A stretch of 55,337 nt of DNA from Candidatus Woesearchaeota archaeon (GCA_016192985.1 JACPTC010000024.1:1-55337); one strand, 5' to 3'; positions 18,862 to 47,869 are shown, counted from the stretch's first letter. A program made the numbers and translations. The notes: a model not told the origin generated them from the sequence alone.

Positions 18862-21483
18862 ATGGATATGGCACTAACAGAAGCGCAGAGGTTTCATTTA
18901 AAGAAGTTCATTAAGGAATTGGAACGGCATAGGGGCAGGCATACTGAGTTAGTCAGTGTTTACATTCCGAAGGATTATGATATGAACAAGATAATCAACC
19001 ATCTTGCTCAGGAGCAGGGTACAGCATCAAATATTAAATCATCAGCAACAAGGAATAATGTGACAGACGCCCTTGAAAGGATGATTCAGCACTTAAAGCT
19101 ATTCAAGACAACGCCAGCAAATGGGTTAGCTGTGTTTTCCGGCAATGTGGCTGAAAGAGAGGGGCAGCAAGACTTTAAGGTTTGGAGCCTAGAGCCGCCT
19201 GTGCCGTTAAAGACAAGGATTTACAGGTGTGACAAGGAATTTGTTCTTGATATACTAAGAGACATGCTTGAGGCTAAAGAGGTTTATGGATTGGTTGTCA
19301 TGGACAGGAGAGACGCCAATCTGGCTCTTCTCAAAGGAAAGACAATTATTCCAATCGTTAAAACTCATTCAGAGGTGCCTGGAAAATTTAAAGCGGGGGG
19401 ACAATGTCTTGTAAAAGGTACTTTAATTCAATCAACTGATGGCCTCGTCCTGCCAATTGAAAATTTTCATAATCCAAAAAGTGTCAAAAGTATGATTACA
19501 GAAAATTTATCAATGTCGGACTCAGCAATAGCTGATAAATGGAATGTAAATAAGGAAGAAGTTTACAAGATAATTACAAGATATCCTAGACTTGAAGTAC
19601 AATCCTCTAAAGACCACATATTTTTTGTCTCAACTCCAAATGGGCTTATTGAAAGAGCTGCTGAAGAGCTTAAAGTAGGAGATTTCTTAATTATGCCTGA
19701 AAAAATTGATATAAAGGGTGATGTACAGAGTATTAATTCTAAAAAATACTATAATTCATTTATAGTTACTAAAGAAGGTCAAGAACTTCTAAAACAAGCA
19801 CGTTTAAAAATGAAATCGCTTCAAAGAGAACTAGCTAAAAGAATTGGTGCAACACAAACAACAATCTCTTCTTATGAAATTGGCAAACTCCATGCTGAAA
19901 AAGAGCCGTTAAAGCGCTTATGCGAAGAATTAGGCATAGATTTTGAAGGATTTATACAAAAATACACTAAACAGCATCATCACCAGAATGTAAGTATAAG
20001 ATTACCTGAAACCTTAAATCCAGATTTTGCACAATTTCTCGGTTATTTTATAGGTGATGGCTGTTTAGAGACCGATAGACTTACGTTCTTCGAACAGGAT
20101 AAACAAGTTGCTTTAGCTTATAAAAAGAGGTATGAAAAATATTTTAATCTAAGAATAAGTTATCGTTTCAGAAAAAGTAAGAGTTATCATCAATTAAGAT
20201 TCACCAGTAGGCCGCTTGTTAGATTAATTATAAATGAATTTCCAGAAATTAGAAAAGCATTGGATACTGAGATTCCAGAAAAAATTCTTAAGTCAAAAGA
20301 TGAAGTAATTGCGGCTTTTCTAAGGGGGTTATTTGACGCAGAAGGGTATATCTCAGGAAAATTAGCTATTGGGATGAACAATAAAAAAATAATTCAACAA
20401 ATACAAATGGCTTTGCTTAGATTTGGAATAATATCTTCTATGCTTGAATATGACAACAAACAAAATCCTTATAGTAGAAAACATAGATTCACATTAGAAA
20501 TGTCGGAAAAAGAATCTTTAGAATTATACCAAAAGTTTATAGGTTTCTCGTCTAAAATGAAGTCAGAAAAATTAGAAACAGGCATAAAAAATAGAACACT
20601 TAGGAGCAATGTGCGACAGATTATTATTCCAGGTAAAATGATTGGTAAATTGCTAAAAGAAGCTGAGTATAGTTTAGGAAACTTCCGAGTTTCTTTGTTT
20701 TTTACAAACAAAAGAATGATGAGTAAAGCAGTTTTTTACAATAAGTTTGTACCTCAAATAAAAAATAGTAAACTTAAAAAAGAATTACTTAGAATTTATA
20801 ACATACCTATTTTGCCTGTAAAAATACATAAAATTGAATTTGTAAAAGAAAATATGGAGATGATTGACATTTCTGTAAAAGATAAGAGTTTTATAGCAAA
20901 TGGGTTAATAGTTCATAATTCAGCCCAAAGATTCCATCGCCTTATAGAAGGGGCAGCGAAAGACCATTATAAGAAAGTGGCTGAATATATGAAAGAAGCC
21001 TTTCTTAATATGGAAGGGTTGAAGGGAATAATTGTTGGCGGCCCAGGCCCCACGAAATATGATCTTGTTGAAGGTGGCTACATAACAAATGAAGTGAAGA
21101 AGAAAATAATTGCAATAAAGGATTTAAGCTATACCGGCGAATTTGGCCTTGAGGAGTTGCTTGAGAAAAGCCATGATGTTTTGGCTCAGGAAGATGTAAT
21201 TGAGGAGAAGAAAATAGTTGGCAAGTTCTTTGAGATGCTTGCAACGAAACAGAATATGGTTGCTTATGGAGAATCTGATGTAATGAAAAAGCTTAAAATG
21301 GGCGTTGTTGATATCCTGATTTTATCAGAAGACTTGCCTGATGAGAAAATTGAGGAGTTTGAGGCAACTTCAAAGCCAGTTGGAACAGAAATAAGGATTA
21401 TTTCAACGCAAACAAGGGAAGGAGTCCAGCTCCGTGATTTGGGAAAAGTAGCTGCTATTTTAAGGTATGAGGTTTACGTATAA
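18862..21483 (+). CDS. prf1: peptide chain release factor aRF1, interrupted by an intein
   Basis: Exteins: 181 aa ending ...GKFKAGGQ and 187 aa starting SAQRFHRLIEGAAK..., which rejoin as the universal GGQSAxRF motif. NIKS motif at TASNIKS. The true start may be the second ATG (18868), given the TATA at 18838-18845. Confidence 0.9.
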   Translation: MDMALTEAQRFHLKKFIKELERHRGRHTELVSVYIPKDYDMNKIINHLAQEQGTASNIKSSATRNNVTDALERMIQHLKLFKTTPANGLAVFSGNVAEREGQQDFKVWSLEPPVPLKTRIYRCDKEFVLDILRDMLEAKEVYGLVVMDRRDANLALLKGKTIIPIVKTHSEVPGKFKAGGQCLVKGTLIQSTDGLVLPIENFHNPKSVKSMITENLSMSDSAIADKWNVNKEEVYKIITRYPRLEVQSSKDHIFFVSTPNGLIERAAEELKVGDFLIMPEKIDIKGDVQSINSKKYYNSFIVTKEGQELLKQARLKMKSLQRELAKRIGATQTTISSYEIGKLHAEKEPLKRLCEELGIDFEGFIQKYTKQHHHQNVSIRLPETLNPDFAQFLGYFIGDGCLETDRLTFFEQDKQVALAYKKRYEKYFNLRISYRFRKSKSYHQLRFTSRPLVRLIINEFPEIRKALDTEIPEKILKSKDEVIAAFLRGLFDAEGYISGKLAIGMNNKKIIQQIQMALLRFGIISSMLEYDNKQNPYSRKHRFTLEMSEKESLELYQKFIGFSSKMKSEKLETGIKNRTLRSNVRQIIIPGKMIGKLLKEAEYSLGNFRVSLFFTNKRMMSKAVFYNKFVPQIKNSKLKKELLRIYNIPILPVKIHKIEFVKENMEMIDISVKDKSFIANGLIVHNSAQRFHRLIEGAAKDHYKKVAEYMKEAFLNMEGLKGIIVGGPGPTKYDLVEGGYITNEVKKKIIAIKDLSYTGEFGLEELLEKSHDVLAQEDVIEEKKIVGKFFEMLATKQNMVAYGESDVMKKLKMGVVDILILSEDLPDEKIEEFEATSKPVGTEIRIISTQTREGVQLRDLGKVAAILRYEVYV
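19405..20919 (+). mobile_element. 505-aa intein with LAGLIDADG homing-endonuclease domain and an HTH segment
   Basis: - Starts with Cys (CLVKGTLIQ) and ends with ...GLIVHN, followed by Ser+1.
- Block-B-like SSKDH.
- LAGLIDADG motifs FLGYFIGDGC and FLRGLFDAEGYI.
- Cro/C1-like HTH LQRELAKRIGATQTTISSYEIGK (about 19810-19950). Confidence 0.85.
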
Positions 21484-22255: not shown

Positions 22256-22465
22256 ATGGCTGAAAAAATATTTCCCCTTGCGGCGATGGAAAAATTGATT
22301 AAGGAAGGCGGCGCTGACAGGGTATCTGACAAAGCAAAGGTCGCATTGAGAAATGCTATTGAGGAAATAGCGCACGAAATTGCCGTGAAATCCATTAAGC
22401 TTGCTGTTCATGCGGGAAGAAAAACAATCAAGGCAGAAGACATTAAACTTGCTGTTAAGGAATAG
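22256..22465 (+). CDS. archaeal histone (HMf family)
   Basis: 69 aa: PLAAMEKLIKEGGADRVSDKAKVALRNAIEEIAHEIAVKSIKLAVHAGRKTIKAEDIKLAV, a histone fold. TTTAAATA at 22217-22224 lies upstream. Confidence 0.9.
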   Translation: MAEKIFPLAAMEKLIKEGGADRVSDKAKVALRNAIEEIAHEIAVKSIKLAVHAGRKTIKAEDIKLAVKE

Positions 22466-22508: not shown

Positions 22509-22532
22509 TATTTAATGGCAAAATTTCAGTTA

Positions 22533-24437
22533 ATGTACTGCATCTTTAAAAACAGGAGAAAGGTTACAAGGAAAAAAGAGAACAAAGCTCAGGTTACCTT
22601 TTACGCAATTCTTGGCTTATTCTTGTTTATGTTTCTAATTATAGGGGTGTTTTACTATAATAATGTTAAAGAGCAGCGGGCTAGAGAAGAAGCTGCTAAG
22701 ATACAGGAAATAAACCTTAATGCTCAGGAAATAGAGAGATTAGTAAGCGACTGCATAAGAAAGGAATCGTTTGATGGCTTAAAAATACTTGGACGGGCAG
22801 CTGGATATTTTGAGATTCCAATGCTTATAGACTATAAAGGCACTGCAATGTGGCAGTTCGATCAGGCAAACATTCAGCCATTTCTCAACCAAACTCAGGA
22901 AAGATTGATTGAGTATGTTGATAAGAATGTTCCAAAATGCTTTGAAAATGCAAATGTTACCCAGTACGGGTTTTTAATAGAGAAAAAAGAGCCAAAAACC
23001 TTTATGGAATTTGGCGCAAGCGATGTCACAATAAAAGTTATTTACCCAATAAAGGTAAGCAAAGGGCAGTTTACAAAGGAATTTTCTGAATTTTTTAACA
23101 CTTTTAACATAAGGTATCGTGCTATTTATGAGGCTGCAACTGAGGTTAATGAAAGGCTTTTTGACGCTGATTTTGACATAAAGAATCCACTGAAGAAACT
23201 TGATTACTTAAAGGGCATGGATTTTGACATTAGCTACAAGATGCTGCAAGAGGATATTATAACTTTTACAGTTACAGATAAAAGGTCAATAACTCCTGAA
23301 AACCAAAATTATATGTTCAGCTTTGCGGCAAAGCTTGGAAACTCCACATTGAAAAAGTTAACCACTTTGCAGAACAGAAGCGCAACGAATCCTGCGGTGC
23401 TGCCTTATACAATTTATTCTGTTGACAAGAAAGCGCAGCTTGATATTTTTGCAGGAACAACAGTAAATCTGGATGGCAAGGATGCAGAATATATTAGCGT
23501 GCAGCAGGCTTATCCAAATAATTTGACAACAAAGGATATCCCGCAGCATAAGAAAAACGACCAAATTGTAAGGAGAGGTGATGACAGCTATGTGATTGAC
23601 AATCCTGTTTACAACTTCGAGCCGACAGGAATAAGGTTCAACAAGCCAGAAAAATTGACTATTTATTATGAGGATGAAGCAAAGGCAGGCAAAGGCGTTG
23701 GAATTTTGATGGGCAAGAAAGACGCAAAGAAAAAAGGAAGCGGTGAAGGAAAAAAATATGGTTATGAAGATTTCTTCTGGGTTCCTATTCCCTCAAGCCA
23801 TGACATTCAGAATAAAAGAGTTATAGCAAACATACTTGGCTTTACATCCTTCACAGCAGTAAACTGCGCTTCACAGCAATTAAAGGACAAAATAGGAGAG
23901 CATTTTTTTGAGCCGGAAACTACTTGTTATGTTAGTTTGGCGATAATGATTTTGGCAATTTTGTTGGTTGTAGTTACATTTGGTGCTGGACTGGCTGTTG
24001 CCGCTCTTGGAGCTACTGCTGCACCCGGAAGTGCTTTGGCCGTGGGGGCTGGCGCTCTTAGTAGTGGATATATGGCAGCCGGTGCTTCAGCAATTGGTAC
24101 TGCTATTGGAGTAGGTGCTGGAGTAGTCACTGGTGTGGTCGCTGCTGTATCTGTTATTAGTACAGGTATGTCAGTCATCGGCTCAACCACAGACGCTTAC
24201 TGGGGAACATCAGGAGATAATTGCGTAACATTTTACCCATTGTGCGACCAGAATGTTGAAATTGTTATGGAGAAATCAACCGATGAGGCAGAAGGGCAAT
24301 GCGTTCCTGAAAAAGGGCAAAGAGTTGCTGCAGGCACTGCTTCTATGGTATGCGCACAAGTTGAGGGTTGCGGCAATTTCTTAGACAAGACTCTGTGCAA
24401 ATCTTGCAGCATCAAGTGCACTGCCAAGGTTTATTGA
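22533..24437 (+). CDS. membrane/surface protein with pilin-like class III signal peptide, Gly/Ala-zipper TM region and Cys-rich tail
   Basis: - N-terminus ...KENKAQVTFYAILGLFLFMFLIIGV fits [KR][GA][Q..][ILV..] prepilin-peptidase sites.
- The N-terminal ~100 aa are paralogous to the 27989 gene.
- C-terminus has GAGLAVAALGATAAPGSALAVGAGAL...
- Terminal CGNFLDKTLCKSCSIKC. Confidence 0.6.
   Translation: MYCIFKNRRKVTRKKENKAQVTFYAILGLFLFMFLIIGVFYYNNVKEQRAREEAAKIQEINLNAQEIERLVSDCIRKESFDGLKILGRAAGYFEIPMLIDYKGTAMWQFDQANIQPFLNQTQERLIEYVDKNVPKCFENANVTQYGFLIEKKEPKTFMEFGASDVTIKVIYPIKVSKGQFTKEFSEFFNTFNIRYRAIYEAATEVNERLFDADFDIKNPLKKLDYLKGMDFDISYKMLQEDIITFTVTDKRSITPENQNYMFSFAAKLGNSTLKKLTTLQNRSATNPAVLPYTIYSVDKKAQLDIFAGTTVNLDGKDAEYISVQQAYPNNLTTKDIPQHKKNDQIVRRGDDSYVIDNPVYNFEPTGIRFNKPEKLTIYYEDEAKAGKGVGILMGKKDAKKKGSGEGKKYGYEDFFWVPIPSSHDIQNKRVIANILGFTSFTAVNCASQQLKDKIGEHFFEPETTCYVSLAIMILAILLVVVTFGAGLAVAALGATAAPGSALAVGAGALSSGYMAAGASAIGTAIGVGAGVVTGVVAAVSVISTGMSVIGSTTDAYWGTSGDNCVTFYPLCDQNVEIVMEKSTDEAEGQCVPEKGQRVAAGTASMVCAQVEGCGNFLDKTLCKSCSIKCTAKVY
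24373..24437 (+). repeat. direct repeat copy 1 (last 65 nt of the 22533-24437 CDS)
   Basis: 60/65 identical to 25074-25138. All 5 differences are third-position or synonymous (gac/gat, gcc/gcg, aag/aaa, tat/tac, tga/taa). Confidence 0.9.
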
Positions 24438-24453
24438 AATTTTTTCAGCAAGA

Positions 24454-24461
24454 TTTAAATA
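24454..24461 (+). promoter_or_regulatory. TATA box (TTTAAATA) for the cassette genes
   Basis: 30 nt upstream of the ATG at 24484 and too close (12 nt) to the tracked ATG at 24466. Confidence 0.45.
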
Positions 24462-24483
24462 TATAATGAATATAATATTCCCC

Positions 24484-24711
24484 ATGGAACTCAAAATTGA
24501 GGAAGCAAATAAATTATTTGAGGAAATAAGTAAAGAATTGACTAGCAAATATAAAGGAAAAATAGTGGCTATAGATACAGATACTGGCAGTTATTTTATT
24601 GGCGACTCTGAGCTTGATGCTTACAAAAAAGCTACGAAAAAATATCCCGATAAAAAATTTGTATTCAAGAGAATTGGCTTTGGCTCTACATACTTTGTCG
24701 GTGCTTTATAA
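24484..24711 (+). CDS. small DUF5678-like protein (partner of the DTGF protease)
   Basis: MELKIEEANKLFEE...GKIVAIDTDTGSYFIGDSELDAYKKATKKYPDKKFVFKRIG. The pattern is as I recall for DUF5678. Its stop overlaps the next start (TAATG). Confidence 0.5.
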   Translation: MELKIEEANKLFEEISKELTSKYKGKIVAIDTDTGSYFIGDSELDAYKKATKKYPDKKFVFKRIGFGSTYFVGAL

Positions 24712-25064
24712 TGAGGGGCTTCTTTAAATTTGGGAGCCCTGTTATAGATTTGTCTATTGAAGGAAGAAGAATTGGGACATTATTGGATACAGGTTTTAAC
24801 GGGCATATTATGCTGCCATTGCCAATAATCAGGGAACTTGCCTTGGACAAAATTGGAATTTCTGATTATTTGACAGCAAGCGGGGATGGCAAAATAACAG
24901 AAGTGTACAAAGGTAAAATAATTTTTTTGAATGAAAAAATAGAAGTGCCTATATTGTCAACAGATGCAGATTTTTCATTAGCAGGAATGGAGTTGTTTCA
25001 TGAGTGTAAGATAATTATTGAAAGGAATAAAGATTTTGTTGAAGTTAGTAAATCTGTAAAGTGA
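24711..25064 (+). CDS. retropepsin-like clan AA aspartic protease (DTGF, AF_0612-type)
   Basis: LLDTGFNGHIMLP active-site motif, ~117 aa, size typical of single-lobe retropepsins that act as homodimers. Confidence 0.7.
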   Translation: MRGFFKFGSPVIDLSIEGRRIGTLLDTGFNGHIMLPLPIIRELALDKIGISDYLTASGDGKITEVYKGKIIFLNEKIEVPILSTDADFSLAGMELFHECKIIIERNKDFVEVSKSVK

Positions 25065-25073
25065 ATTGTGTCT

Positions 25074-25138
25074 GCAATTTCTTAGATAAGACTCTGTGCA
25101 AATCTTGCAGCATCAAGTGCACTGCGAAAGTTTACTAA
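25074..25138 (+). repeat. direct repeat copy 2 (orphan copy of a coding 3' end)
   Basis: Reads ...CNFLDKTLCKSCSIKCTAKVY* in its own frame. That frame is open only from 25052, so it is a remnant without a gene body. Confidence 0.9.
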
Positions 25139-25146
25139 ATAAAATA

Positions 25147-25389
25147 TAGTGCCTAATATTTATCTATTATTGTATTCCTTTTTAATTTATTGTAATGCCT
25201 AAATTAAGTAGTGCCTAAATCTATTAACTATAATAGTGCTAATATATTATGTAATGCCTATTATTTATGGCATTTTTACATAAATAAAGCTATAATTTTC
25301 TAGTAGTGTCTAAAATTAACTAATAATAGTGCCTAAAATAACTAAAGTTAGCGTAAATCAAAACATTTAAATACTAAAGTAGTGCCTAA
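25147..25389 (+). repeat. array of eight same-orientation TAGTGCCTAA-like 10-mers
   Basis: Copies at 25147, 25193 (TAATGCCTAA), 25209, 25234 (TAGTGCTAA), 25252 (TAATGCCTAT), 25304 (TAGTGTCTAA), 25327 and 25380. Spacing is irregular, 16-53 nt. Confidence 0.8.
25366..25373 (+). promoter_or_regulatory. TATA box (TTTAAATA) for the 54-codon ORF
   Basis: 31 nt upstream of the ATG at 25397. The last 10-mer copy (25380-25389) sits between the TATA box and the start. Confidence 0.4.
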
Positions 25390-25396
25390 TTATTTT

Positions 25397-25561
25397 ATGG
25401 TATTCCTCAGGGTAAAAAAAATCAACAACAATCATTATTATTATCTTGTCAAAAGCGTCAGGATTAATGGAAAAATAAGGCAGAAGGTTGTCAAGTACAT
25501 AGGCAAGTCAAAGAAACTAGCTTCTATAATCGAAAATGCTGAGCAAAAGGAAGATAGATAA
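25397..25561 (+). CDS. small basic protein (54 aa), possible DNA-binding protein
   Basis: Not in the ORF track. Hand translation: MVFLRVKKINNNHYYYLVKSVRINGKIRQKVVKYIGKSKKLASIIENAEQKEDR*. TATA box at leaderless distance. Overlaps the next gene start by 26 nt in another frame. Confidence 0.3.
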   Translation: MVFLRVKKINNNHYYYLVKSVRINGKIRQKVVKYIGKSKKLASIIENAEQKEDR

Positions 25562-27161
25562 AAAACTAAAGAAATATGTAAAGGACCATTTAAGTAAAGG
25601 CCACTCTAATAGTGCGGTAAAGAAAGTTCTAGTCGAGCATGGCTACGATGAAAATTATGTAGAAGGGCTTTTTAAAAAGCATTACGAGCTGCAATTTATC
25701 AAAAAATATGCCATTATTGTTTCAATGTTGTTCATAATTTCATTTTTTTCATTTAATTTTATTATGATGGGCAGTCAGAACCAAGAAATAACAGCTTATG
25801 CTCCTCTAAAAACAGAAAGCTTGGCAGAAGGATGCTGCTTGTCAGTATGCCAGCAGATTCCAAAGCAGGATTGCTATGGGGAATTTGTTGAAAAGAAGGA
25901 ATGCAATGAAATCGATGAATGTGTTATTGGATGCTGCATTGACAAAGAAGGATATTGCCTGACAAATTACCTGCTTGGGAATTGCATAGGGAATTATGGG
26001 AAATTCATAAAGAACGATTGCAGTAATTTATTATTTTGCAGGAACCTTACTGATAAATCATATTCAGCAAGGCTGTATAATGTCAAAAACAAAAAGGGCA
26101 GCGGTTTCTCCAGCGTGATGACCTCTACCGATTACCATAAATCCTCGTTTATAATTAACTATTTCCTTTATGACAAAACAGATGTTGTGGGGGTTATTGG
26201 TGAGATAAAAGACAATGAAAAAATCCTTGATATGATAAATCTTTACGACGATGGCTTCCACAACGATGGAGTAAGCAACGACAATCTTTACGGCAACAAT
26301 TGGCAAAGTTCAAATGTGAAAGAGTTTAATGGCATAAAAAAACTTGAAGTTTATGTAACTATAAAATATGCAGATGGAAAAGAGCAAAAAACAAACAAGA
26401 CCCAAACAATAATCCTAGTAAGAGGAAAATGCCCTCCCATCTACAGTGAATGGAGCGAAATAAAAGATAGCAACATAATATTTGCAGCTAATAATTACGA
26501 AAATATAAGCAACGGATACGATAAATTTGCAGCTGACGTTCAAAATTTCCTTAATTTGTTTTTTTCTGTAAACGACTTTTCCGACTATCTTGATGAATTC
26601 AATATTTACAGGCTGGAGCAGTCATTGTCCTATTTCAATACGCCGACCTTGCTGAGTGTTGTTGCAAATTCTTGCCAATCCTACAATAAGAAGACAGATC
26701 TGGTCGTTATTTTGGATAATGCTGAGCAATATTGCAATTATGATGGGGAAAATGTAGTCAGGGTAAGCCCGCAAGTTATGTTTTATAATAACATGACATA
26801 CGAAGAAATCAATGAAACTTTTGATAAATTCTGCGATTATGTGCTGACTCCAAGGAAGATTGCTGACCAGATATTGAGCTTCGCCACACCTCCGGAAGTT
26901 AATATAAACACAGCGCAAGATATAACTTACAATTCCAGCAGCATAATTATTTCATTTGAAGTGTCTGGGGTTAATTATCCAATTAATTACTCGGTTTTTG
27001 ATAAAGGAGGATTATTGCAGCGCAATGTTGCATTTAGTAAATTTTCAGCTGATATTAATGTGAATCTTACAAACGGCACAAACGATTTTATGATAGTTGC
27101 TCTGGACAAAAACAGAAACAGGGCTGTAACATATATTTCGCTAAATGCCACAATAGAATAA
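25536..27161 (+). CDS. type II membrane protein, Cys-rich extracellular region, unknown function
   Basis: Cytoplasmic N-terminal module KGHSNSAVKKVLVEHGYDENYVEGLF, a single TM helix (IIVSMLFIISFFSFNFIMM), then a Cys-rich segment and beta-rich domains. Confidence 0.6.
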   Translation: MLSKRKIDKKLKKYVKDHLSKGHSNSAVKKVLVEHGYDENYVEGLFKKHYELQFIKKYAIIVSMLFIISFFSFNFIMMGSQNQEITAYAPLKTESLAEGCCLSVCQQIPKQDCYGEFVEKKECNEIDECVIGCCIDKEGYCLTNYLLGNCIGNYGKFIKNDCSNLLFCRNLTDKSYSARLYNVKNKKGSGFSSVMTSTDYHKSSFIINYFLYDKTDVVGVIGEIKDNEKILDMINLYDDGFHNDGVSNDNLYGNNWQSSNVKEFNGIKKLEVYVTIKYADGKEQKTNKTQTIILVRGKCPPIYSEWSEIKDSNIIFAANNYENISNGYDKFAADVQNFLNLFFSVNDFSDYLDEFNIYRLEQSLSYFNTPTLLSVVANSCQSYNKKTDLVVILDNAEQYCNYDGENVVRVSPQVMFYNNMTYEEINETFDKFCDYVLTPRKIADQILSFATPPEVNINTAQDITYNSSSIIISFEVSGVNYPINYSVFDKGGLLQRNVAFSKFSADINVNLTNGTNDFMIVALDKNRNRAVTYISLNATIE

Positions 27162-27162
27162 A

Positions 27163-27987
27163 ATGAAGAAAAAGATAGCCTTATGCATATTTTTAGCGAT
27201 TTTGTCAGTTATACCTGCAAACGCTGCTAAGTATTTCGTTTTAGATATAAACAATATATTTGACTCTGTGACATTCAATGGTGTGAATGTAAAAGAAATT
27301 GAGAGGCAGATTAACTATGGTGACAAATCTGGATTTTTAATCAAAACACTCACTTTTGCAAATTCAGATATTGAAAAAGTCTATTACAACATTTCTGAAA
27401 ACAGGAATTATCAAATATACCTTCCTTATGATGCAAAAGCGGCGCGAATAGAAGTTTACAATACAAGAAACTCCAAGATAATGGACATAGACGTAAGCTC
27501 TTTTGCAAATACCTGCGGCAATAATGCATGTGAAGAGCATGAGTCATACGAAAGCTGCACAAAGGATTGCAAATCCGGCAGCAAAGACGATTTTTGTGAC
27601 AGCTTAGCAGACGGCACTTGCGACCCAGACTGCTCACCAAAAACAGACACAGACTGCTCTCAAGTGAGCTATAAAGGCGCAAATGAAAACCTGACAAAAA
27701 CAAGTGCCGGCAGTGTTGTAAATCCAAATAAATCGCCAAAAATACCCAAAGAGCGCAAGACAAGCCTGATTTATTTTATATTGATGCCCATTACTTTGGT
27801 TTTGGTTGTAGGTGGCTTGGTTTTTATAGCAATCAAAAGAAAGAGGGAAAACCAAATTGCTAGCTCATTAAAACAATATATTATTGAAAATATTAAGAGA
27901 GGATTTACATTGCAGCAAATTAAGGATGTCTTGTACAGGGAAGGATATTCTGAGAGAGAGATTGACAAGGCTGTGAAAACCATTTAA
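27163..27987 (+). CDS. type I membrane protein with Sec signal peptide and Cys-rich module, unknown function
   Basis: Signal peptide MKKKIALCIFLAILSVIPANA, Cys-rich CGNNACEEHESYESCTKDCKSG...CDPDCSPKTDTDC, TM helix near the C-terminus, cytoplasmic tail RGFTLQQIKDVLYREGYSEREIDKAV. Confidence 0.6.
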   Translation: MKKKIALCIFLAILSVIPANAAKYFVLDINNIFDSVTFNGVNVKEIERQINYGDKSGFLIKTLTFANSDIEKVYYNISENRNYQIYLPYDAKAARIEVYNTRNSKIMDIDVSSFANTCGNNACEEHESYESCTKDCKSGSKDDFCDSLADGTCDPDCSPKTDTDCSQVSYKGANENLTKTSAGSVVNPNKSPKIPKERKTSLIYFILMPITLVLVVGGLVFIAIKRKRENQIASSLKQYIIENIKRGFTLQQIKDVLYREGYSEREIDKAVKTI

Positions 27988-27988
27988 A

Positions 27989-29092
27989 ATGAGATTAAAC
28001 AAAGCGCAGATTTCGTATTTTCTGATATTGGGATTGATATTGGTTTTTGTGCTTGGAATAGGGGTTTATTTTGTCGGAGACTTGGAAGGGCAGAAAGCAA
28101 AAAAAACAACTGAAAAAGTTCAGCAAATTAGTTTAGAGGCGCAACCCGTAAAAACTTATATCGATGAATGCATTAAAAAGGTTGCTGTTGAGACAGCATA
28201 TGAATTTGGGCAAAGACAGGGTTATCATGATGTGCCTAAACCAAACCTTAATACTGATTATTCTAATGTCGCTTACTATTACTATAAAAGCAAAAATATA
28301 GTCCCTACTAAAAATACTCTAAAAAAAGAATTCTCAAAAATATTGGATGAAAATCTATTAATTGACTGCACTGATTTTTTGATATTTGAAAATCTTGGAT
28401 ACAGTATAGAGTTTAAAGATTTAAACTCAACAGTTCAGATATTTGAGGATAAATTAATTATTAACGTTAATTACCCGCTGCTTATTGGAAAAGGAGATTT
28501 AAAGAGTTCTATCAATACTTTTTCTTACGCACTTCCGTTCAGAATAGGGCACATAATTGATATTTCTAATGACCTAGTGAATTCAGTTGTTAGTGAGCCT
28601 TATGCTTTAGACCTTACATTATTATTAAATTTTGATGTAGGTGTTTCAGTTATACATTATGATAATTGCAATGATGTTTATATTATTGTAGACAATGAAT
28701 CAAAAGTAAAGTCTAGCGATGATGATTATGTTTTTACTTTCGCTGCTGGATTGGAAGATCAGTATTGTAGGACAAATACAAGTTATCAAGAAACCAAACT
28801 TGTTATAACCTACCCTACTGTTGAAAATCATGGCCCGATATTAGAGCCAGTATATTATCTTATTGCTCATATAAATCAAGAATTTACTTACAGGTTAAAT
28901 GCTTCTGATGAGGATAATGATACTTTATTTTATCTCACGGATGGTATTTTACAAAACTATACTAATGTTTTGTCCGGATTTATTAATTTTACTCCTAAGC
29001 GTGAGCAAATCGGCATTTACCAAGTCAATACAACAGTAGTTGACATAAACAGCGGACTGGATGTTAAGCAGTTTTATCTTGAAATAAAATGA
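27989..29092 (+). CDS. pilin-like (class III signal peptide) surface protein with C-terminal cadherin/Ig-like domain
   Basis: MRLNKAQISYFLILGLILVFVLGIGV. The N-terminal region is paralogous to the 22533 gene. The C-terminus NQEFTYRLNASDEDNDTLFY...FINFTPKREQIGIYQVNTTVVD resembles dystroglycan-type cadherin-like repeats. Confidence 0.6.
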   Translation: MRLNKAQISYFLILGLILVFVLGIGVYFVGDLEGQKAKKTTEKVQQISLEAQPVKTYIDECIKKVAVETAYEFGQRQGYHDVPKPNLNTDYSNVAYYYYKSKNIVPTKNTLKKEFSKILDENLLIDCTDFLIFENLGYSIEFKDLNSTVQIFEDKLIINVNYPLLIGKGDLKSSINTFSYALPFRIGHIIDISNDLVNSVVSEPYALDLTLLLNFDVGVSVIHYDNCNDVYIIVDNESKVKSSDDDYVFTFAAGLEDQYCRTNTSYQETKLVITYPTVENHGPILEPVYYLIAHINQEFTYRLNASDEDNDTLFYLTDGILQNYTNVLSGFINFTPKREQIGIYQVNTTVVDINSGLDVKQFYLEIK

Positions 29093-32000
29093 CCAAAAGG
29101 ACATTTTCAATATTTGTAATTTATCTTTTATTATTTTCAGCAATAAGCATTCAAATTAATGCAGACGCCCCTTCTGCTGATAATCAATACCCCTTAGATG
29201 ACAAGCCTGAAGTGCAGGAAAAATGGATTTTAGAGCATCCATCTTCATTTAATCCGGATAATCCAAATCAAAAAGACGCTTTTATCCGAGCTTATAATAA
29301 GGGTCAAATAAAATATCCAGACCACATAGAAGCAACGAGCAAATATGTTTCTACTTTAAATAATGGATTTGCAAATGACAAAGACAGGCAAATTGCCGCT
29401 AAATATGTTTCTTACTTGATGAATCAAAAGGGTGCAGATTTCAAGCAAGGCGATATAAAGATAACTGTAGAAGGAAACTACAGGTTAACTTATATTATCA
29501 CAAGCGACGGTGTAAGATGGGATTTAAATCAATTAAGCAAAGATGAAAAATTAAAGGCTATTAAGTCAAGGCAAGATGGAACTTTAGAGCTTATATACAA
29601 TGAAGGGACTGTAAATGCAAGGGGAACTTCATTGACAAAAAATCAAAATAACGAATTTGTAACAAGCAGTGGACAAACTTTTTCTGTGGAAAGTCTTAAT
29701 GGAAAAACTGCAACAGTAAGCGCAAGCGGAAGCTCTTTGAACATTAAATGTGATAATGGCTGCGTTTTGAGCAAAGGCTATATGGTCACAACTTTAAATC
29801 CAAATGGAGCATTCTGGGATTTTGGGAACAATAGATTTCAAGTTGAAGACGGCGCTACACGGCTTGGACAAAATGTCCTGGCAGGAAAATACAGTTTTAG
29901 CTTAAACATAGACAAGGATGGACACACCACTTTAGACACGTCAAAAAAAATCGAACTATTCAAATTTGGGAAAATTGACAATTTAAGGAATAGTTTTATT
30001 CATCTTGAGGATCCACAAGTTAATGATGGAAAATTGCACTTTGGCACTGTTGATGTGGCAACAAGCAGAGTTGATCCAACAACAGGACTAGGAGCAGGAA
30101 AGGTAGTGGCGTGCTTTGATTGCAAGGATTTTGATAAATCTCGCCAAGGAGGAATAAATGGTTATGTGGATTTTAAATCATATCAAAACAGCAACTGCGA
30201 TTCTGCCACTTGCGAAACAGTTTACAAGGCTGAGATGAAAGGATTGGTTGCTGCAAGATTTGAAAAAGATGCTTTCCATGAAGGATTTGACAGAAATTTA
30301 GTTGCTTCCTATTATCCAAACGGAAAAGATGCAAGTAAAACAGACATGGGTATTTTTACATTGGAAAGCTGCAAAGGCTGCAAAGTTGGTGCTGGTCAAA
30401 TTGTAGGAATACAAACCCTCAACAATAACTTTTTCCAAATACAGAACAACTATTATTCAGACGCAAAGCAAGAACCACAATTAAGATATAAACAAATAAC
30501 AACAGCACCGCAAGTAATACCTTATTTGCAGTATGCAAAGTTCAATCAAGAAGGAATAACCTTTTTCGATAAAGATATTTACAAAGAAGGAAGATTATCC
30601 GACACATTAAATACTGGCATGTATAAGTCTGACGTCTTGACCGGCAGAGATAATGCAGGCAAAAATGTCAAGAAATACATTGAGGATTTTTACACAAAAG
30701 AATACAAAGGAAATATTAGAGATGCAGTAGATAGAACAAATAGTGTATTAAGGGATAATCTAAACCCCCAATATTCGCGCAATCTGTACGTCATTGATAA
30801 TACTGCATTTAACTATGATAAAAATGGCAACAAGATTAATGTTCAGAATTTGTATGTAACCACAAAAAACAATGAAGTAATAATAGACCAATTGCGTGCG
30901 GTCGAATCAGGAATTTACTCAAATTTCTTTCAAAGGGAATCCACAAAAGAAATTCTTGATATTTTGGACAGAAAAGGAATCACTGATCCACAAAAAAGGC
31001 AAGAAGAATTTGAAAGGTTAAATGCCTTAAAATCGGATGAAATCTTTTTTAAAACAAGATTGCAATTTTTATCTGCCATTATTGATGGCGGAAGAGCGAT
31101 TCACGAAGACCATCCAGCAGTTTCAGAATTTATTAGGAAGCATATTTTAAATACCTTTCCAAGAGACGAAGCTGAATTGTTTTTAGGCAATTATAAAGTA
31201 AAGTATGCAGGTTCAAAAAAGATATTTGAGTGGCGTTCTGAGGGTAAAAGTTTAGAGGAGATATACAAGAATAGCGGCAGCTCTCCACAAATAAAAGCTG
31301 CTTTCCAGGAGCCTTATTTAGTCCATGCTTTGAATTCTGAAATGATATACAAAGCCAAACTTTACAATGAACCAACCTTATCAATTTATTATTTGGAAAA
31401 TGGAGAGATAAAAACAAAAAACATTGACGCTTCTTTAGCAAGCAGAACGTCTGCGTTGGATGCTTCAAGAGCCTATATTAAAGACAGCAATTCATATTTT
31501 TCAGATACAAGATTAGCTTTTGATATTTACACAGGCCAAATTACCAATGAACTCATTTTGGACAAAGACAAAGAAACATTCCAGAAGTATGTTAAAAATA
31601 TTCTTGGAACGGGCAAGCTGCATCCAAATTCAAGATACTATGAAGGCACGATTTACTTTTCAAACGCAGGACTGTCAGAAAAAAACTATATCCGGATTGG
31701 AGAAGGAAAATATTTTGTTGCATCAAATGAAATTATACAAATGGCAAAGAATGGAAAACTTGATGTCAATCAACTTATAGAACTATCCCAGATAAACCAA
31801 AAATACCAGCAGGATGCAAAAGCACAACAACTAAAATTATTTGCGGAAGCATTTATTCCAAAAAGCATGGCAGAATTAGCGATAAACATAGTGCCAGAGG
31901 CGGGAAGCTTGGCAAAAGGAGCGCAGGCAGTTTATAAGGCTGGAAGTGTTCTAAGGGCAACGGCTGCGTTTGGAGAGTTAAGTGGCAATATTGCATTTGC

Positions 32001-33684
32001 TGGATTGGTCGGAATATCTGTAACACCAAGAACACAACTAAAGAAAGCATTATTAGAAAGACCAGAAGTTGTGAGAGTATCCTTATTACCAGGTGCAGAA
32101 ATTAAATTAGTTCAAGATGCAAATCAAGAGCTTAAGTTGTTAAATGATGCTAAGAGACTTGCGGGAGGTTCAGAATTTCCAGCTGATGTAGTCGTTCATC
32201 AAGTTGGTATAACGACAAAGGAAGGTACTTATATCTCTCCAAAAGTCGGAGAAGATATTGTAGTCTTTGGAGATGCCCCTAAAGACATTATATACGATTT
32301 TATGGCTATAAAACAAAGCCATGGAAAAATTCGAGAAACTATTGACATAGTTGATTTACAAAAAAGCTTTCCTGAAATAAGTGAGAGATTCAAAGGTATG
32401 AGCTGGAGTTTCGCTGACTTATCAATAGAGGAACAGCAGGGAGTAATTGAAGCCATATCTAAAGCGTCCGCTTTTAAAGGAAATATTGAAAGGAGTTTGG
32501 GCGGGGATGGAAGAATAATCTGGATAGCACAACCGCAAGAGGGCGATGCAGATAGATTGGCAAATGCAGTTGGGCTAGGTAAAAAGGCTAGAGATAGTTT
32601 AATACAATCACAGAGCTTGACAAAGGTTGATTTAAGAAAAAATTTAGGTATGGAGACAAAATTTGAAGATTTAACAAGGCCTCAAATTGATGAGGTAATA
32701 GATAGAATTGCAAGATTTAATATTCATTCACAAGAAGGCACAGTGGTTTCTTATGAAGGTGCAAGAGAGTTAAGAACGGGATATGATGTGCATACTCATC
32801 CTATAAGTTTTGAACTTGGCTCACAAGCTGTTAGAGATGAATTAAAGAAACAAATTGATAAAGGATATAGGATACGATGGGATGCGGAAACATCTGCAAG
32901 AATAAAGACCAAGGTCGCTCCAGAACTGCAAAAAGACGTTAGGCAATACGAAGGATTCATTGAAAGTCACAGAGATGAGTTAAGTCAACTAAAAGAAGAT
33001 GCAGGTTTATATTATATGTCCGACGTAAAATATAGATTTTTAAATTTGCAATTCAAGAATGATGCCAAAGGAATGCAAGAACTAACTGAATCTATTAGAA
33101 ATGATGGTTTTGATTTGCCTCGATTTGATGGTCAAACAGGAAAACCATTGACTCCTGAGGTACAATTAAAATTATTTACTGAAAGACCTGTAGAGGTGAG
33201 AATATACCAAGATGCTTTTGATGCACTCGTAAAAAGGAAAGCTGGGGAAATCCAGGCAGATATTGATTTTTGGACAATAGAAAGAGATTCAAGCCAAAGG
33301 CTACTGGATTTAATAGAAGGAGGAGCGCCAGATATTAAGCTTTATTATTCTAGTTTAGATGTTGGCACCATATTACCCTCTTTTGGCCCCGTAGGTGATA
33401 TCAATACTTTGGTAAATCTTCAAAAAGAATGGTTAACACACCCAAGTGGAATAAGGTATAGGGTAGGCAGGAACGTTTATCTTTTTGGAGGAACAACTTA
33501 CATATATGTTGAAGGCTCTGATAAAGTTATAATAGTTCCGGTAATTGGAAAAAACAGTCTTCAAATTGATATACCATTATCTACTGCTACAAAAGGTCTT
33601 TTTAATGAAAATAAAGAACTAGATTTGGAACATTTGTATCCATATTGGAGTAAACTTAAGAATTGGATTGCTACTATAGAATAA
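29089..33684 (+). CDS. giant secreted protein (1531 aa), unknown function
   Basis: Sec signal peptide MTKRTFSIFVIYLLLFSAISIQINA. Uninterrupted 4.6-kb ORF. Start overlaps the upstream stop (ATGA). I recognise no confident domain. Confidence 0.7.
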   Translation: MTKRTFSIFVIYLLLFSAISIQINADAPSADNQYPLDDKPEVQEKWILEHPSSFNPDNPNQKDAFIRAYNKGQIKYPDHIEATSKYVSTLNNGFANDKDRQIAAKYVSYLMNQKGADFKQGDIKITVEGNYRLTYIITSDGVRWDLNQLSKDEKLKAIKSRQDGTLELIYNEGTVNARGTSLTKNQNNEFVTSSGQTFSVESLNGKTATVSASGSSLNIKCDNGCVLSKGYMVTTLNPNGAFWDFGNNRFQVEDGATRLGQNVLAGKYSFSLNIDKDGHTTLDTSKKIELFKFGKIDNLRNSFIHLEDPQVNDGKLHFGTVDVATSRVDPTTGLGAGKVVACFDCKDFDKSRQGGINGYVDFKSYQNSNCDSATCETVYKAEMKGLVAARFEKDAFHEGFDRNLVASYYPNGKDASKTDMGIFTLESCKGCKVGAGQIVGIQTLNNNFFQIQNNYYSDAKQEPQLRYKQITTAPQVIPYLQYAKFNQEGITFFDKDIYKEGRLSDTLNTGMYKSDVLTGRDNAGKNVKKYIEDFYTKEYKGNIRDAVDRTNSVLRDNLNPQYSRNLYVIDNTAFNYDKNGNKINVQNLYVTTKNNEVIIDQLRAVESGIYSNFFQRESTKEILDILDRKGITDPQKRQEEFERLNALKSDEIFFKTRLQFLSAIIDGGRAIHEDHPAVSEFIRKHILNTFPRDEAELFLGNYKVKYAGSKKIFEWRSEGKSLEEIYKNSGSSPQIKAAFQEPYLVHALNSEMIYKAKLYNEPTLSIYYLENGEIKTKNIDASLASRTSALDASRAYIKDSNSYFSDTRLAFDIYTGQITNELILDKDKETFQKYVKNILGTGKLHPNSRYYEGTIYFSNAGLSEKNYIRIGEGKYFVASNEIIQMAKNGKLDVNQLIELSQINQKYQQDAKAQQLKLFAEAFIPKSMAELAINIVPEAGSLAKGAQAVYKAGSVLRATAAFGELSGNIAFAGLVGISVTPRTQLKKALLERPEVVRVSLLPGAEIKLVQDANQELKLLNDAKRLAGGSEFPADVVVHQVGITTKEGTYISPKVGEDIVVFGDAPKDIIYDFMAIKQSHGKIRETIDIVDLQKSFPEISERFKGMSWSFADLSIEEQQGVIEAISKASAFKGNIERSLGGDGRIIWIAQPQEGDADRLANAVGLGKKARDSLIQSQSLTKVDLRKNLGMETKFEDLTRPQIDEVIDRIARFNIHSQEGTVVSYEGARELRTGYDVHTHPISFELGSQAVRDELKKQIDKGYRIRWDAETSARIKTKVAPELQKDVRQYEGFIESHRDELSQLKEDAGLYYMSDVKYRFLNLQFKNDAKGMQELTESIRNDGFDLPRFDGQTGKPLTPEVQLKLFTERPVEVRIYQDAFDALVKRKAGEIQADIDFWTIERDSSQRLLDLIEGGAPDIKLYYSSLDVGTILPSFGPVGDINTLVNLQKEWLTHPSGIRYRVGRNVYLFGGTTYIYVEGSDKVIIVPVIGKNSLQIDIPLSTATKGLFNENKELDLEHLYPYWSKLKNWIATIE

Positions 33685-34960: not shown

Positions 34961-34969
34961 AAGAATCAA

Positions 34970-35647: not shown

Positions 35648-35662
35648 TTTTATTAATCACCT

Positions 35663-36346: not shown

Positions 36347-36525
36347 TTTGTCCAATTTTATATTTATAGATTAAAAATGTAAACAATTTCACTATTTAAA
36401 TCTTTCTATTTGTTACTACCCATAAGTTATTCTATCTAACCCTTGTCTCACCCTTGACTTTTTCAATTCCCACATTCTCATTTTCTGTTTTTAACTAATC
36501 CCATCAATAACCAAAGCTGCATTTT

Positions 36526-47776: not shown

Positions 47777-47869
47777 ATAAACTTTTTCTAGTCAAACCAT
47801 CCTCAAATTCTCAATCAAAAGATTTATAAAATACATGCGCTTATTTTCTGTATTTTCAAGTTGCACAAA

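Follow-up and report, generated by a model that had tools for sequence, protein, structure and literature searches.

A putative recombinase-less cassette at the 3′ end of a membrane-protein gene conserved in Woesearchaeota

The duplicated gene end and the two genes between its copies

The window, i.e., the whole 55,337-nt stretch of Candidatus Woesearchaeota DNA analyzed here (GCA_016192985.1, JACPTC010000024.1), harbors a membrane-protein gene whose 3′ end recurs downstream of two small overlapping genes. The locus comprises the following features, given with their basis.

22515..24437, + strand: target gene, 640-aa membrane protein (ORF call; about 50 Woesearchaeota orthologues with conserved tail)
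24373..24437, + strand: left repeat copy, the functional 3′ end of the target gene (NFLDKTLCKSCSIKCTAKVY, stop TGA) (sequence, repeat search)
24387..24424 (second copy 25088-25125), + strand: 38-nt core, identical in both copies (exact-match count)
24438..25073, + strand: cassette body (alignment of the window with L035)
24454..24461, + strand: TTTAAATA, TATA-box-like putative cassette promoter (sequence, alignments)
24484..24711 (mechanical ORF from 24466), + strand: DUF5678-like small protein, 75 aa, candidate antitoxin or partner (weak Pfam match, homologues)
24711..25064, + strand: 117-aa aspartic protease of retropepsin-like type carrying a DTGF motif, candidate effector or toxin (TIGR03698, AlphaFold model)
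25074..25138, + strand: right repeat copy, a displaced gene tail without gene body, stop TAA (sequence, repeat search)
25147..25389 (25147, 25193, 25209, 25304, 25327, 25380), + strand: array of six TAGTGCCTAA-type motifs (motif count)
25397..25561, + strand: conserved 54-aa protein (MVFLRVKKINNNHYYYLVKSVRINGKIRQKVVKYIGK...) (ORF call, orthologous loci)

The C-terminal tail of the target-gene product is Cys-rich and conserved (VCAQVExCGNF..K..CKSCS.KCTAKxY), and its N-terminus, where KAQ precedes a hydrophobic segment, resembles the class III (pilin-type) signals of archaea; no family was matched in a Pfam search. The 65-nt repeat described in the first-pass annotation (24373-24437 and 25074-25138) was recovered with 60 of its 65 positions identical and all five differences synonymous in the gene frame (GAC/GAT, GCC/GCG, AAG/AAA, TAT/TAC, TGA/TAA). 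The second copy, as had also been stated, lacks a gene body, its frame opening at 25052 because TAA at 25049-25051 closes it. The repeat search extended the similarity to an 81-nt direct repeat (24358-24438 and 25059-25139; 85% identity, spacing 701), which beyond the 65 nt is weaker and reaches 24358, 15 nt upstream. The 38-nt core, a candidate crossover interval, has exactly two matches in the window and none in 100 shuffles.

The 701-bp unit consists of a single tail copy and two genes that overlap, preceded by a putative TATA-type promoter of their own; the stretch conserved with L035 runs in the alignment from just past the stop codon to about 25075. The promoter-like TTTAAATA and the two translationally coupled genes noticed earlier between the repeat copies, with the TAATG overlap at 24709-24713, proved to be as described. 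TTTAAATA lies 23 nt upstream of the ATG at 24484 and is kept as (C)AGCAAGATTTAAATA in all cassette copies. The first gene most likely starts at this ATG on a leaderless transcript, since the ATG at 24466 lies only 5 nt past the TATA box and the homologues are all 75 aa long and start with MELKIEEANK.

The first protein has a weak match to DUF5678 (Pfam PF18929; E 3.2e-4), its 20.9 bits falling short of the 23.2 cut-off, and has 75-aa homologues in L035, L043, L046, L049, L050, L052 and L055. Its single-sequence model (pLDDT 79) gave no fold match, the comparison with PDB sequences no match and the literature search no mention; none of the known toxin, antitoxin or defense families in Pfam, NCBIfam and PADLOC matches it. 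The second protein scores E 2.3e-12 and 47.2 bits against TIGR03698 (clan_AA_DTGF), below the 57.35 cut-off, and only E 0.07-0.2 against the Pfam aspartyl protease models. Its DTGF motif occupies residues 26-29; among 42 homologues, D26, G28 and F29 are invariant and T27 is present in at least 90%. The AF2 model (pLDDT 94.8) resembles PDB 5c9f (Foldseek TM 0.75, probability 1.00) and the XMRV protease (TM 0.71). With the catalytic D-T/S-G motif and a predicted retropepsin fold, the protein is, by its model, a clan AA protease. No known toxin or antitoxin family was found for it in Pfam, NCBIfam or PADLOC; the clan AA assignment and a weak PADLOC match to PEPT_D were obtained instead. The literature searched contains no description of a retropepsin-like toxin, and a 2009 toxin-antitoxin survey mentions no aspartyl protease pair.

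The layout is of the toxin-antitoxin type, i.e., two small overlapping genes with their own TATA box and a patchy, mobile distribution. By association, the pair may be toxin-antitoxin-like, and this guess is strengthened because the same slot holds recognized toxin-antitoxin pairs in other genomes. The DUF5678-like protein would then neutralize the protease, and the pair would operate as an addiction or defense module like its neighbors in the arrays described below.

Empty and occupied sites in related genomes

An empty site, which the first-pass reading called for, was found in the close relative L061: here the gene ends once and leads straight into the motif array, with no cassette. This locus is collinear with the window over 25074-25435, and its small downstream protein is 96% identical to that of the window. 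In at least 14 further empty orthologous loci, the gene end is directly followed by the TAGTGCCTAA motif array, and the right repeat copy of the window joins the array just as the gene end does in the empty sites. Relative to these sites, the alignments show the cassette to be an insertion. The window contains 14 TAGTGCCTAA-type motifs (3.1 expected), six of them in 25147..25389; judging from the orthologous loci, the array is a host feature marking the right border of the insertion site. The 54-aa protein, the first gene product of the downstream operon with its own TATA box at 25366-25373, is likewise part of the site, not of the cassette. Its family (48-93 aa) is confined to Woesearchaeota and has no Pfam match or annotation; it may resemble the N-terminus of IS1634-type transposases or arm-binding domains.

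The gene end is occupied in nine related contigs by at least seven different two-gene cassettes, each followed by a displaced tail copy of 25 to about 260 nt. According to Pfam, the cassettes encode TumE+DUF7342, ParE-like (ParE/RelE-like), PIN+MazE, PIN+RHH and ParE_like+wHTH proteins; PADLOC adds PDC-S70, and the DUF5678-like/retropepsin-like pair is itself one of the occupants. Downstream tail copies are present in 7 of the 32 loci with enough downstream sequence (the window, L002, L005, L009, L035, L037 and L040), most orthologous loci having no extra copy; direct repeats matching the target-gene 3′ end also occur at eight other contigs. L035 carries five tail copies in one array plus a 31-nt remnant, which lies between two cassettes in both L059 and L035; L059 and L060 represent array fragments with tail copies. 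In the small-cassette arrays of L035, L059 and L060, the cassettes bear TATA boxes and lie in both orientations. The contigs compared show that different toxin-antitoxin cassettes reuse the same gene end and form arrays, which are known from metagenome contigs only.

Repeats of this kind break de Bruijn assemblies, and many protease homologues sit on contigs of 0.6-1.8 kb, so mis-assembly has to be considered together with a diversity-generating retroelement (DGR), whose variable and template repeats the two copies might be; DGRs are common in DPANN archaea, and a reverse transcriptase gene does lie near one unrelated cassette copy (L046). Taken together, these two explanations are hardly credible. 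The assembly artefact was rejected: in four independent groundwater runs, a single unitig spanning 24395-25117 runs through the two unique junctions, and its depth is that of the flanks on either side (unitig vs. flanks: 11.3 vs. 12 and 9.2; 22.8 vs. 32.4 and 23.8; 11.7 vs. 13 and 11.7; 8.2 vs. 9.2 and 7.7), and the same architecture recurs in independent assemblies from other sites. No circular or excised form turned up in the Logan contigs used, in which the 38-nt core exceeds k=31 and the flanking differences are 40 nt apart, so the path of an empty site would be indistinguishable. The 31-nt remnant is shorter than the assembler k-mers (L059, record name k141; L035), and this speaks against k-mer chimeras as the source of the arrays. 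The DGR was rejected as well: the mismatches (C/T, C/G, G/A, T/C, G/A) are not adenine-specific, with A in the second copy at only two of the five differences, all five of which are synonymous, and the searches of the window turned up no reverse transcriptase among the families listed.

Additional cassette copies, sought to follow up the first-pass reading, were found with borders of the same type in L035, L059 and L060, where they sit at the tail of this gene. The cassette coding DNA of the window is 88.6% identical to that of L035, whereas the host genes share 44.7% aa identity; the ParE-like cassette is 80-86% identical in four hosts. In L049, the same DUF5678/protease cassette family lies behind a GSDH-family gene, whose own 3′ end is duplicated (52 nt, 87% identical, with five synonymous and four non-synonymous changes). 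The protease family as a whole occurs in at least eight different genomic contexts. At four of them (L043, L046, L052, L055), no flanking repeats were detected; in L050 (YdjM), a repeat in T-rich sequence scored 35 vs. a null maximum of 30, a marginal result that is possibly real. These identities in distant hosts show, at the level of the genomes compared, that the cassette has moved horizontally. Viral contigs scanned with the target-gene profile and the protease revealed no viral or plasmid vehicle.

Tail copies and the mode of insertion

The tail copies 1, 3 and 4 of L035 yield dN/dS of 0.06-0.13 at dS of 0.36-0.77, and the differences are synonymous in 5/5 cases in the window and 4/4 in L040. 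Since the differences are mostly synonymous, comparison of the copies shows them to be diverged functional alleles, not products of decay in place.

This pattern is unexpected in a dead copy, as would have been left by in-place duplication or by a decayed neighboring paralog, with the two genes merely lying in between. The window does contain paralog-like genes of similar N-terminal architecture (27989-29092), and the weak similarity running on 15 nt upstream of the 65-nt repeat could be read in the same way. Still, a decayed adjacent paralog is contradicted by L061 and the other empty loci, which contain no paralog remnant, and by the purifying selection on the extra copies; the slot holds different cassettes in different genomes, and the tail motif occurs only twice in the whole window. 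Such an origin is thus very improbable. Only slightly better placed, and improbable in its turn, is the suggestion that the tail copies are silent C-terminal cassettes, i.e., a stock from which a surface protein could exchange its C-terminus by recombination, in the manner of pilin or orphan toxin-tip cassettes, while the toxin-antitoxin genes hitch-hike and stabilize the array. The target resembles a surface or membrane protein, and the long L035 copies stay in frame over 60-86 codons under purifying selection and form two haplotypes. However, the peptides encoded by the copies are almost alike (4-17 changes in 81 residues), many copies are just 25-65 nt long and one is frameshifted (L060); the extra copy is absent from most orthologous loci, and the same architecture is seen at the ordinary enzyme gene of the GSDH family.

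The stop codon is TGA in 8 of 11 tail copies preceding a cassette and TAA in 8 of 8 preceding the motif array (Fisher p about 0.002, by the author's count), which points to different origins of the two ends. In the same vein, the copies in L009 and in L035 (c1/r vs. c4) show no difference until the T of the stop codon. At the variable sites of the window, L061 matches the functional copy on the left side of the core and shares two sites on the right side with the displaced copy; this comparison, covering four sites only, suggests that the present gene end may be a mosaic, although the L061 stop codon (TGA) does not fit a simple one. Even where distant hosts carry the same cassette, the tails on either side of it are host-specific; therefore, a simple one-step Campbell model requires donors closely related to each host or later gene conversion. 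Tails within an array are closer to each other than to any sampled foreign tail, and comparison of the L035 tails with the other sampled lineages revealed no match to a foreign donor.

The empty sites, the occupied sites and the mobility of the cassette support the first-pass proposal of integration at the 3′ end of a protein-coding gene with a replacement end supplied. The 701-bp unit is probably a small mobile recombinase-less cassette inserted at the stop codon of the conserved Woesearchaeota membrane-protein gene. The incoming DNA, in a circular or repeat-flanked form, would carry a homologous copy of the gene tail and recombine with the chromosome within the last 25 to about 260 nt of the gene in a Campbell-type event. 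As the crossover would fall within the tail and the incoming DNA would supply a homologous one, the gene would keep an intact end; the second tail copy would remain after the cassette and adjoin the DNA that lay downstream before the insertion. The reaction may be driven by the homologous recombination of the host or by a recombinase acting in trans.

That no integrase is present had been noted before and holds for what was searched: the two small cassette genes are not recombinase-like, the Pfam search of the window ORFs tested yielded no integrase or transposase among the families listed (25 of 76 in one search), and scanning 59 loci (about 495 kb, with array contigs being short) for a tyrosine-recombinase motif gave no hit.

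An alternative with a smaller, still appreciable chance of being correct is an integron-like system, in which a dedicated recombinase encoded elsewhere would treat the gene end (around ...TGCACTGCnnAnnTTTAyT|rA) as an attI-like site and the cassette tails as attC-like sites, with precise insertion and excision at the stop codon. Archaea, Nanoarchaeota among them, have been reported to carry integron arrays (PMC9668308). At least seven unrelated cassette families at the same gene end in distant hosts, toxin-antitoxin-rich arrays resembling those of integrons and the split between TGA before cassettes and TAA before host DNA fit such a system; so do the 9 of 11 junctions at which the cassette begins no more than about 6 nt past the stop codon, the five different cassettes that begin with TGAAA after the tail and the repeats of L009 and L035 that end at the T of the stop. 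The negative searches for an integrase speak against it, as does the variation of both junctions: the displaced copy has no fixed left border, its length being anywhere from 25 to about 260 nt, and members of a single cassette family already differ in this respect; the left junction inside the cassette varies too. Single-stranded DNA folds of both strands of the tail regions, compared with shuffles, revealed no attC-like hairpin in the window and L015 (z -0.6 to +0.2), only L035 reaching -2.7, and the tail sequence contains no GTTRRRY core. In addition, the cassettes have their own promoters and both orientations, and the same cassette sits at the end of another gene in L049.

The integron-like alternative departs from the Campbell-type explanation solely in which enzyme acts and in how precise the crossover is.

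On a broader scale, it is conceivable, if doubtful, that Woesearchaeota (DPANN) possess an integron-like cassette capture built from different parts, with a coding 3′ end as the reusable docking site. Toxin-antitoxin or defense cassettes, small and with promoters of their own, would each bring a copy of the gene tail and be gained, stacked and exchanged between lineages via host homologous recombination alone or an unrecognized recombinase, and the pair described here would represent a protease-effector toxin-antitoxin or defense module. DPANN archaea have tiny genomes, are mostly uncultured, and their mobile elements are poorly known. If correct, this scheme would provide a recombinase-less route by which toxin-antitoxin and defense cassettes pass between lineages and pile up at one chromosomal address, and cassette arrays could arise without integron machinery. 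The duplicated coding 3′ end with synonymous differences could serve as a footprint for finding mobile cassettes in metagenomes, and the DUF5678-like/retropepsin-like pair is a candidate for a new type of toxin-antitoxin or defense module. A practical warning is that gene-tail repeats break short-read assemblies at this locus.

Comparison with known systems

Like type II toxin-antitoxin modules, the cassette contains a pair of small genes that overlap and have a promoter of their own, the shorter gene coming first, and ParE, PIN and TumE pairs occupy the same slot; the known families of these modules, however, match neither cassette protein. The second protein shares the DTG motif and the retropepsin fold with clan AA retropepsin-like proteases (TIGR03698; Rickettsia APRc, PDB 5c9f), but its HMM scores stay below the curated cut-offs.

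The prophages e14 and 21 target the 3′ end of the E. coli icd gene and restore it, and the duplicated icd end reportedly differs mostly synonymously, as do the cassette tails. Integrative elements of this kind have in common with the cassette the direct repeats of a target-gene end, the intact gene, the empty sites and tandem re-use. They are multi-kb in size and encode their own integrase, whereas the cassettes described here span 0.6-1.4 kb and contain a toxin-antitoxin-type gene pair only; besides, in the cassette system, repeats at a single target range in length between 25 and about 260 nt, and the cassette family also uses the ends of other genes. In Thaumarchaeota, 14 of 68 integrated elements lie in 3′-distal parts of protein genes (PMC6563490).

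A further likeness is to modules exchanged between relatives without a recombinase of their own: they are small and cargo-only like the cassette, often carry toxin-antitoxin pairs and are bounded by repeated sites or conserved flanks, as here. Such modules include CIMEs and tandem ICE accretion, the Xer-dependent pdif modules of Acinetobacter plasmids and the minimal mobile elements of Neisseria. The dif-like inverted repeat of pdif modules is not evident in the cassette tail, and the Neisseria elements, unlike the cassette, replace one another without flank duplication. To our knowledge, none of these systems uses the coding end of a protein gene as the repeated site.

With integrons, the arrays share small one- or two-gene cassettes that are rich in toxin-antitoxin genes and carry no recombinase, and the tail copies are comparable to the recurring recombination-site-like separators beside a fixed anchor. 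Unlike in integrons, no intI lies nearby and the separator is a coding 3′ end without an attC hairpin or R″/R′ core; the cassettes have their own promoters and occur in both orientations, integron cassettes being mostly promoterless and co-oriented, and each separator shows homology to the gene of its host and tracks the lineage of that host.

The duplicated gene end and its empty site

The 640-aa membrane protein encoded by the target gene has about 50 orthologues (29–68% identity), and the same Cys-rich tail ends them all. In the window, the end of this gene is present twice, with a small gene pair (the cassette) in between:

22515–24437 (+): target gene
24373–24437: tail copy at the functional gene end
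24454–24461: TATA box, between the tail copies
24484–24711: DUF5678-like gene
24711–25064: retropepsin-like DTGF protease gene
25074–25138: displaced tail copy, lacking a gene body
25147–25389: array of TAGTGCCTAA motifs
25397–25561: tiny conserved gene (54 aa)

The repeat search returned an 81-nt direct repeat (24358–24438 and 25059–25139; 85% identical, spacing 701), the 38-nt exact core of which occurs twice in the window and in none of 100 shuffles. The 65-nt repeat of the gene 3' end described in the first-pass annotation was recovered at 60/65 identical positions; as described there, all five differences (GAC/GAT, GCC/GCG, AAG/AAA, TAT/TAC, TGA/TAA) are synonymous when read in the target-gene frame, and the frame of the second copy is shut upstream by TAA at 25049–25051. 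A single unitig spans 24395–25117 at the depth of both flanks in four groundwater runs, which rules out an assembly artefact. At 25117, a minor contig of run X2 bears G>A (AAG to AAA, synonymous in the displaced-tail frame), which could be strain variation or come from a co-occurring relative's tail.

The first ORF of the pair is DUF5678-like only by a weak Pfam match (E 3.2e-4, under the cut-off), so that this part of the earlier annotation stands as a likeness; the TAATG overlap joining it to a 117-aa DTGF-motif protein was found as proposed. The first ORF most likely starts at ATG 24484 (75 aa), since all homologues are 75 aa long and ATG 24466 lies only 5 nt past the TATA box. The 117-aa protein matches TIGR03698 (E 2.3e-12, score under the cut-off), and the retropepsin-like fold ascribed to it is borne out by its AlphaFold model (pLDDT 94.8), which matches the Rickettsia protease 5c9f (TM 0.75) and retroviral proteases.

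For comparison, 38 orthologous loci were fetched, with that of a close relative, L061, added later; all are metagenome contigs, those with arrays included, and the sampling was anchored on the target gene and one protease family. In L061, the target gene ends once (…CKSCSVKCTAKYY, stop TGA) and is directly followed by the TAGTGCCTAA motif array, aligning collinearly with window 25139–25435; the small downstream proteins of L061 and the window are 96% identical. The empty site expected from the earlier reading of the cassette as an integration was thus present in L061 and in at least 14 further loci, where the stop codon is followed after 4–60 nt by the motif array and then, where the sequence reaches, by a 51–54-aa gene and a 536–541-aa gene. 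The displaced tail copy of the window joins the motif array just as the gene end does in the empty sites; therefore, the cassette and one tail copy (701 bp) are an insertion relative to these sites.

The array comprises 6–8 TAGTGCCTAA motifs between the target-gene stop and the tiny gene (51–54 aa, ...YYYLVKSVRINGKIRQKVVKYIGK...); besides the window, array and gene are seen in L002 (3100–3340), L014, L015, L039, L042 and L061. The tiny-gene protein family occurs only in Woesearchaeota and has no Pfam domain. The last motif lies between the TATA box (25366–25373) and the ATG of the tiny gene, a position that would suit a putative operator for autoregulation. In L010, a lone PIN-like 164-aa ORF (9897–10391) separates the target gene from the 540-aa gene; its clade lacks the motif array and the small gene, and L010 has no convincing tail copy.

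The window, with an archaeal histone gene (22256–22465) and TTTAAATA promoters, is from a Woesearchaeota-type DPANN archaeon; the homologues of the studied genes are all in Woesearchaeota/Nanoarchaeota MAGs. The gene at 18862–21483 (873 aa), judged from its translation, is a putative aRF1 (peptide chain release factor) gene, in which an intein with LAGLIDADG-type endonuclease motifs (…FLGYFIGDGC…, …LRGLFDAEGY…) appears to reside. The target gene heads a co-oriented run (22515–33684) of genes whose large products (640, 541, 274, 367 and 1531 aa) lack Pfam domains; the run may be an operon for a cell-surface apparatus. At the start of two of the proteins (genes 22515 and 27989), KAQ precedes a hydrophobic stretch, reminiscent of archaeal pilin-type signal peptides. 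No Pfam match was obtained for six neighbouring ORFs of 197–274 aa either: five are on the minus strand (34145–37861), four of these being about 225–230 aa long and possibly paralogs, and one is on the plus strand (38059–38652). Two ORFs of the window match the HMGL-like family, 7533–7949 among them; an HMGL-like gene appears to be split into the overlapping ORFs 6451–7701 and 7533–7949, which may be due to a frameshift or a sequencing error.

Different cassettes at one gene end

Of the 32 loci whose downstream sequence was long enough, 7 have extra downstream tail copies (the window, L002, L005, L009, L035, L037 and L040); L059 and L060, contigs found via the protease, carry fragments of the same kind of array. 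Each interval between tail copies is occupied by a single small gene pair, and the gene end is thus reused as an insertion site by different cassettes.

Gene pairs between tail copies and the loci where they occur
ParE/RelE-like pair (67 + 96–99 aa): L002, L005, L040, L035
TumE + DUF7342: L035
PIN + MazE/AbrB: L035
ParE_like + winged helix: L035
PIN + RHH: L009
PDC-S70 candidate defence pair: L037
DUF5678-like/protease pair: window, L035, L059, L060

In the multi-cassette array of L035, four to five cassettes are interspersed with five tail copies (154–246 nt) and a 31-nt remnant. Such a 31-nt remnant separates two cassettes both in L035 and in L059, the record name of which carries k141; being shorter than the k-mers of such assemblers, it argues against the arrays being k-mer chimeras. 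In the ParE-like cassette of L035 (2354–2640), the antitoxin gene is intact and the toxin frame is interrupted, its start lost; toxin loss with an intact antitoxin is a common fate of toxin-antitoxin pairs.

The fetched loci (approximately 495 kb) contain only three short-range direct repeats of another kind, namely one inside a gene of the window, a weak pair in L046/L047 and, in L018, a 45-nt repeat corresponding to a gene 5' end. Within the 876-aa ORF 47861–50491 of the window, a 174-nt direct repeat (48542–48714 and 49574–49746; 80% identical, 48-nt exact core) is probably an internal protein repeat. The L018 repeat (124–168 and 770–814; 84% identical) surrounds a 168-aa gene and matches the beginning (start codon and about 13 codons) of the gene that comes next on that strand, possibly as a mirror image of the 3'-end footprint.

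The cassettes have moved horizontally. The DUF5678/protease coding DNA is 88.6% identical between the window and L035, whose host genes share only 44.7% protein identity, and the ParE-like cassette is 80–86% identical across four hosts. The conserved part runs from just past the stop codon to about window 25075, and the flanking tails track the host rather than the cassette. Across Woesearchaeota, the protease family is widely distributed and occurs in at least eight different contexts. Further copies with the same kind of border, to be expected of a self-contained cassette as first proposed, were located at the same gene tail (L035, L059, L060) and at another gene: in L049, a GSDH-family gene precedes the cassette, and the final 52 nt of that gene are repeated directly after the protease gene (87% identical; five synonymous and four non-synonymous differences). 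Hence, the footprint belongs to the insertion mode of the cassette, not only to the target gene. Behind a YdjM-family gene (L050), the flanking repeat is marginal, and none was found at the cassettes of L043, L046, L052 and L055. In L049, about 190 nt inserted between the two genes (~1600–1790) break their overlap; in L046 and L047, an RVT_1 reverse-transcriptase gene (2409–3479) lies two genes from an unrelated copy of the cassette.

The DUF5678-like/protease pair is organised like a type II toxin-antitoxin module, with a small gene first, overlapping genes, an own promoter and a patchy mobile distribution, and at one site it alternates with recognised toxin-antitoxin pairs. Because of this layout and shared slot, there is, by association, about an even chance that it serves in addiction or defence, the protease being the effector and the DUF5678-like protein either inhibiting it or being its substrate. 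Neither protein matched a toxin-antitoxin family, and a literature search returned no paper on the pair.

Origin of the tail copies and proposed mode of insertion

Among L035 copies 1, 3 and 4 (81 codons, no stops), dN/dS is 0.06–0.13 at dS 0.36–0.77. In the window (5/5) and in L040 (4/4), every difference between the tails is synonymous. Hence, the copies represent functional alleles of the gene end that have diverged, and not a duplicate decaying in place. A search for the tail donors among the sampled lineages identified none. At the variable sites of the window, L061 shares GAC, left of the core, with the functional copy and, at two sites on the right, AAA and TAC with the displaced copy; the stop does not fit this pattern. 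This mosaic, of four sites only, suggests a crossover inside the tail.

In the simplest reading, incoming DNA bearing a cassette and a homologous tail fragment would recombine inside the chromosomal tail (a Campbell-type event), leaving the gene end intact and a second tail copy attached to the original downstream DNA. Repeated events would stack cassettes, and recombination between neighbouring tail copies could release a circle with one tail copy, able to enter the gene of a relative. This generic model is considered probable, its intermediate and enzyme being presumptive.

The borders bear on a version of this model in which a dedicated site-specific recombinase would act in trans. In L009 and L035 (c1 and the remnant vs. 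c4), the copies are identical through the T of the stop codon and diverge beyond it, so the right border of the repeat is the stop codon. The stop is TGA in 8/11 tail copies preceding a cassette and TAA in 8/8 preceding the motif array (Fisher p ~0.002, by our own count); the empty sites have 7 TGA, 7 TAA and 1 TAG. This sharp border, the TGA/TAA split and the common gene end of seven cassette families would suit such an enzyme. However, the left border is variable (25 to about 260 nt), even inside one cassette family, the tails are host-like, the end of another gene is also used, and no integrase or other recombinase was found in the searches of the window and of the related contigs, the latter being shorter than a genome. 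These features speak for homologous recombination, and a dedicated enzyme seems rather unlikely.

Relation to known integrative systems

Prophages at E. coli icd integrate into the 3'-distal part of a protein gene, with att duplication and tandem reuse of the site. Likewise, archaeal integrated elements that carry an integrase combine 3'-distal insertion into protein genes with short att duplications and tandem site reuse (PMC6563490), and toxin-antitoxin-rich integron arrays occur in Archaea (PMC9668308). Unlike integrons, the arrays described here have no attC hairpin, and, in contrast to both kinds of system, no integrase was found with them. The elements described here also differ from both in being cargo-only mini-cassettes, separated by a coding gene end that tracks the host lineage.
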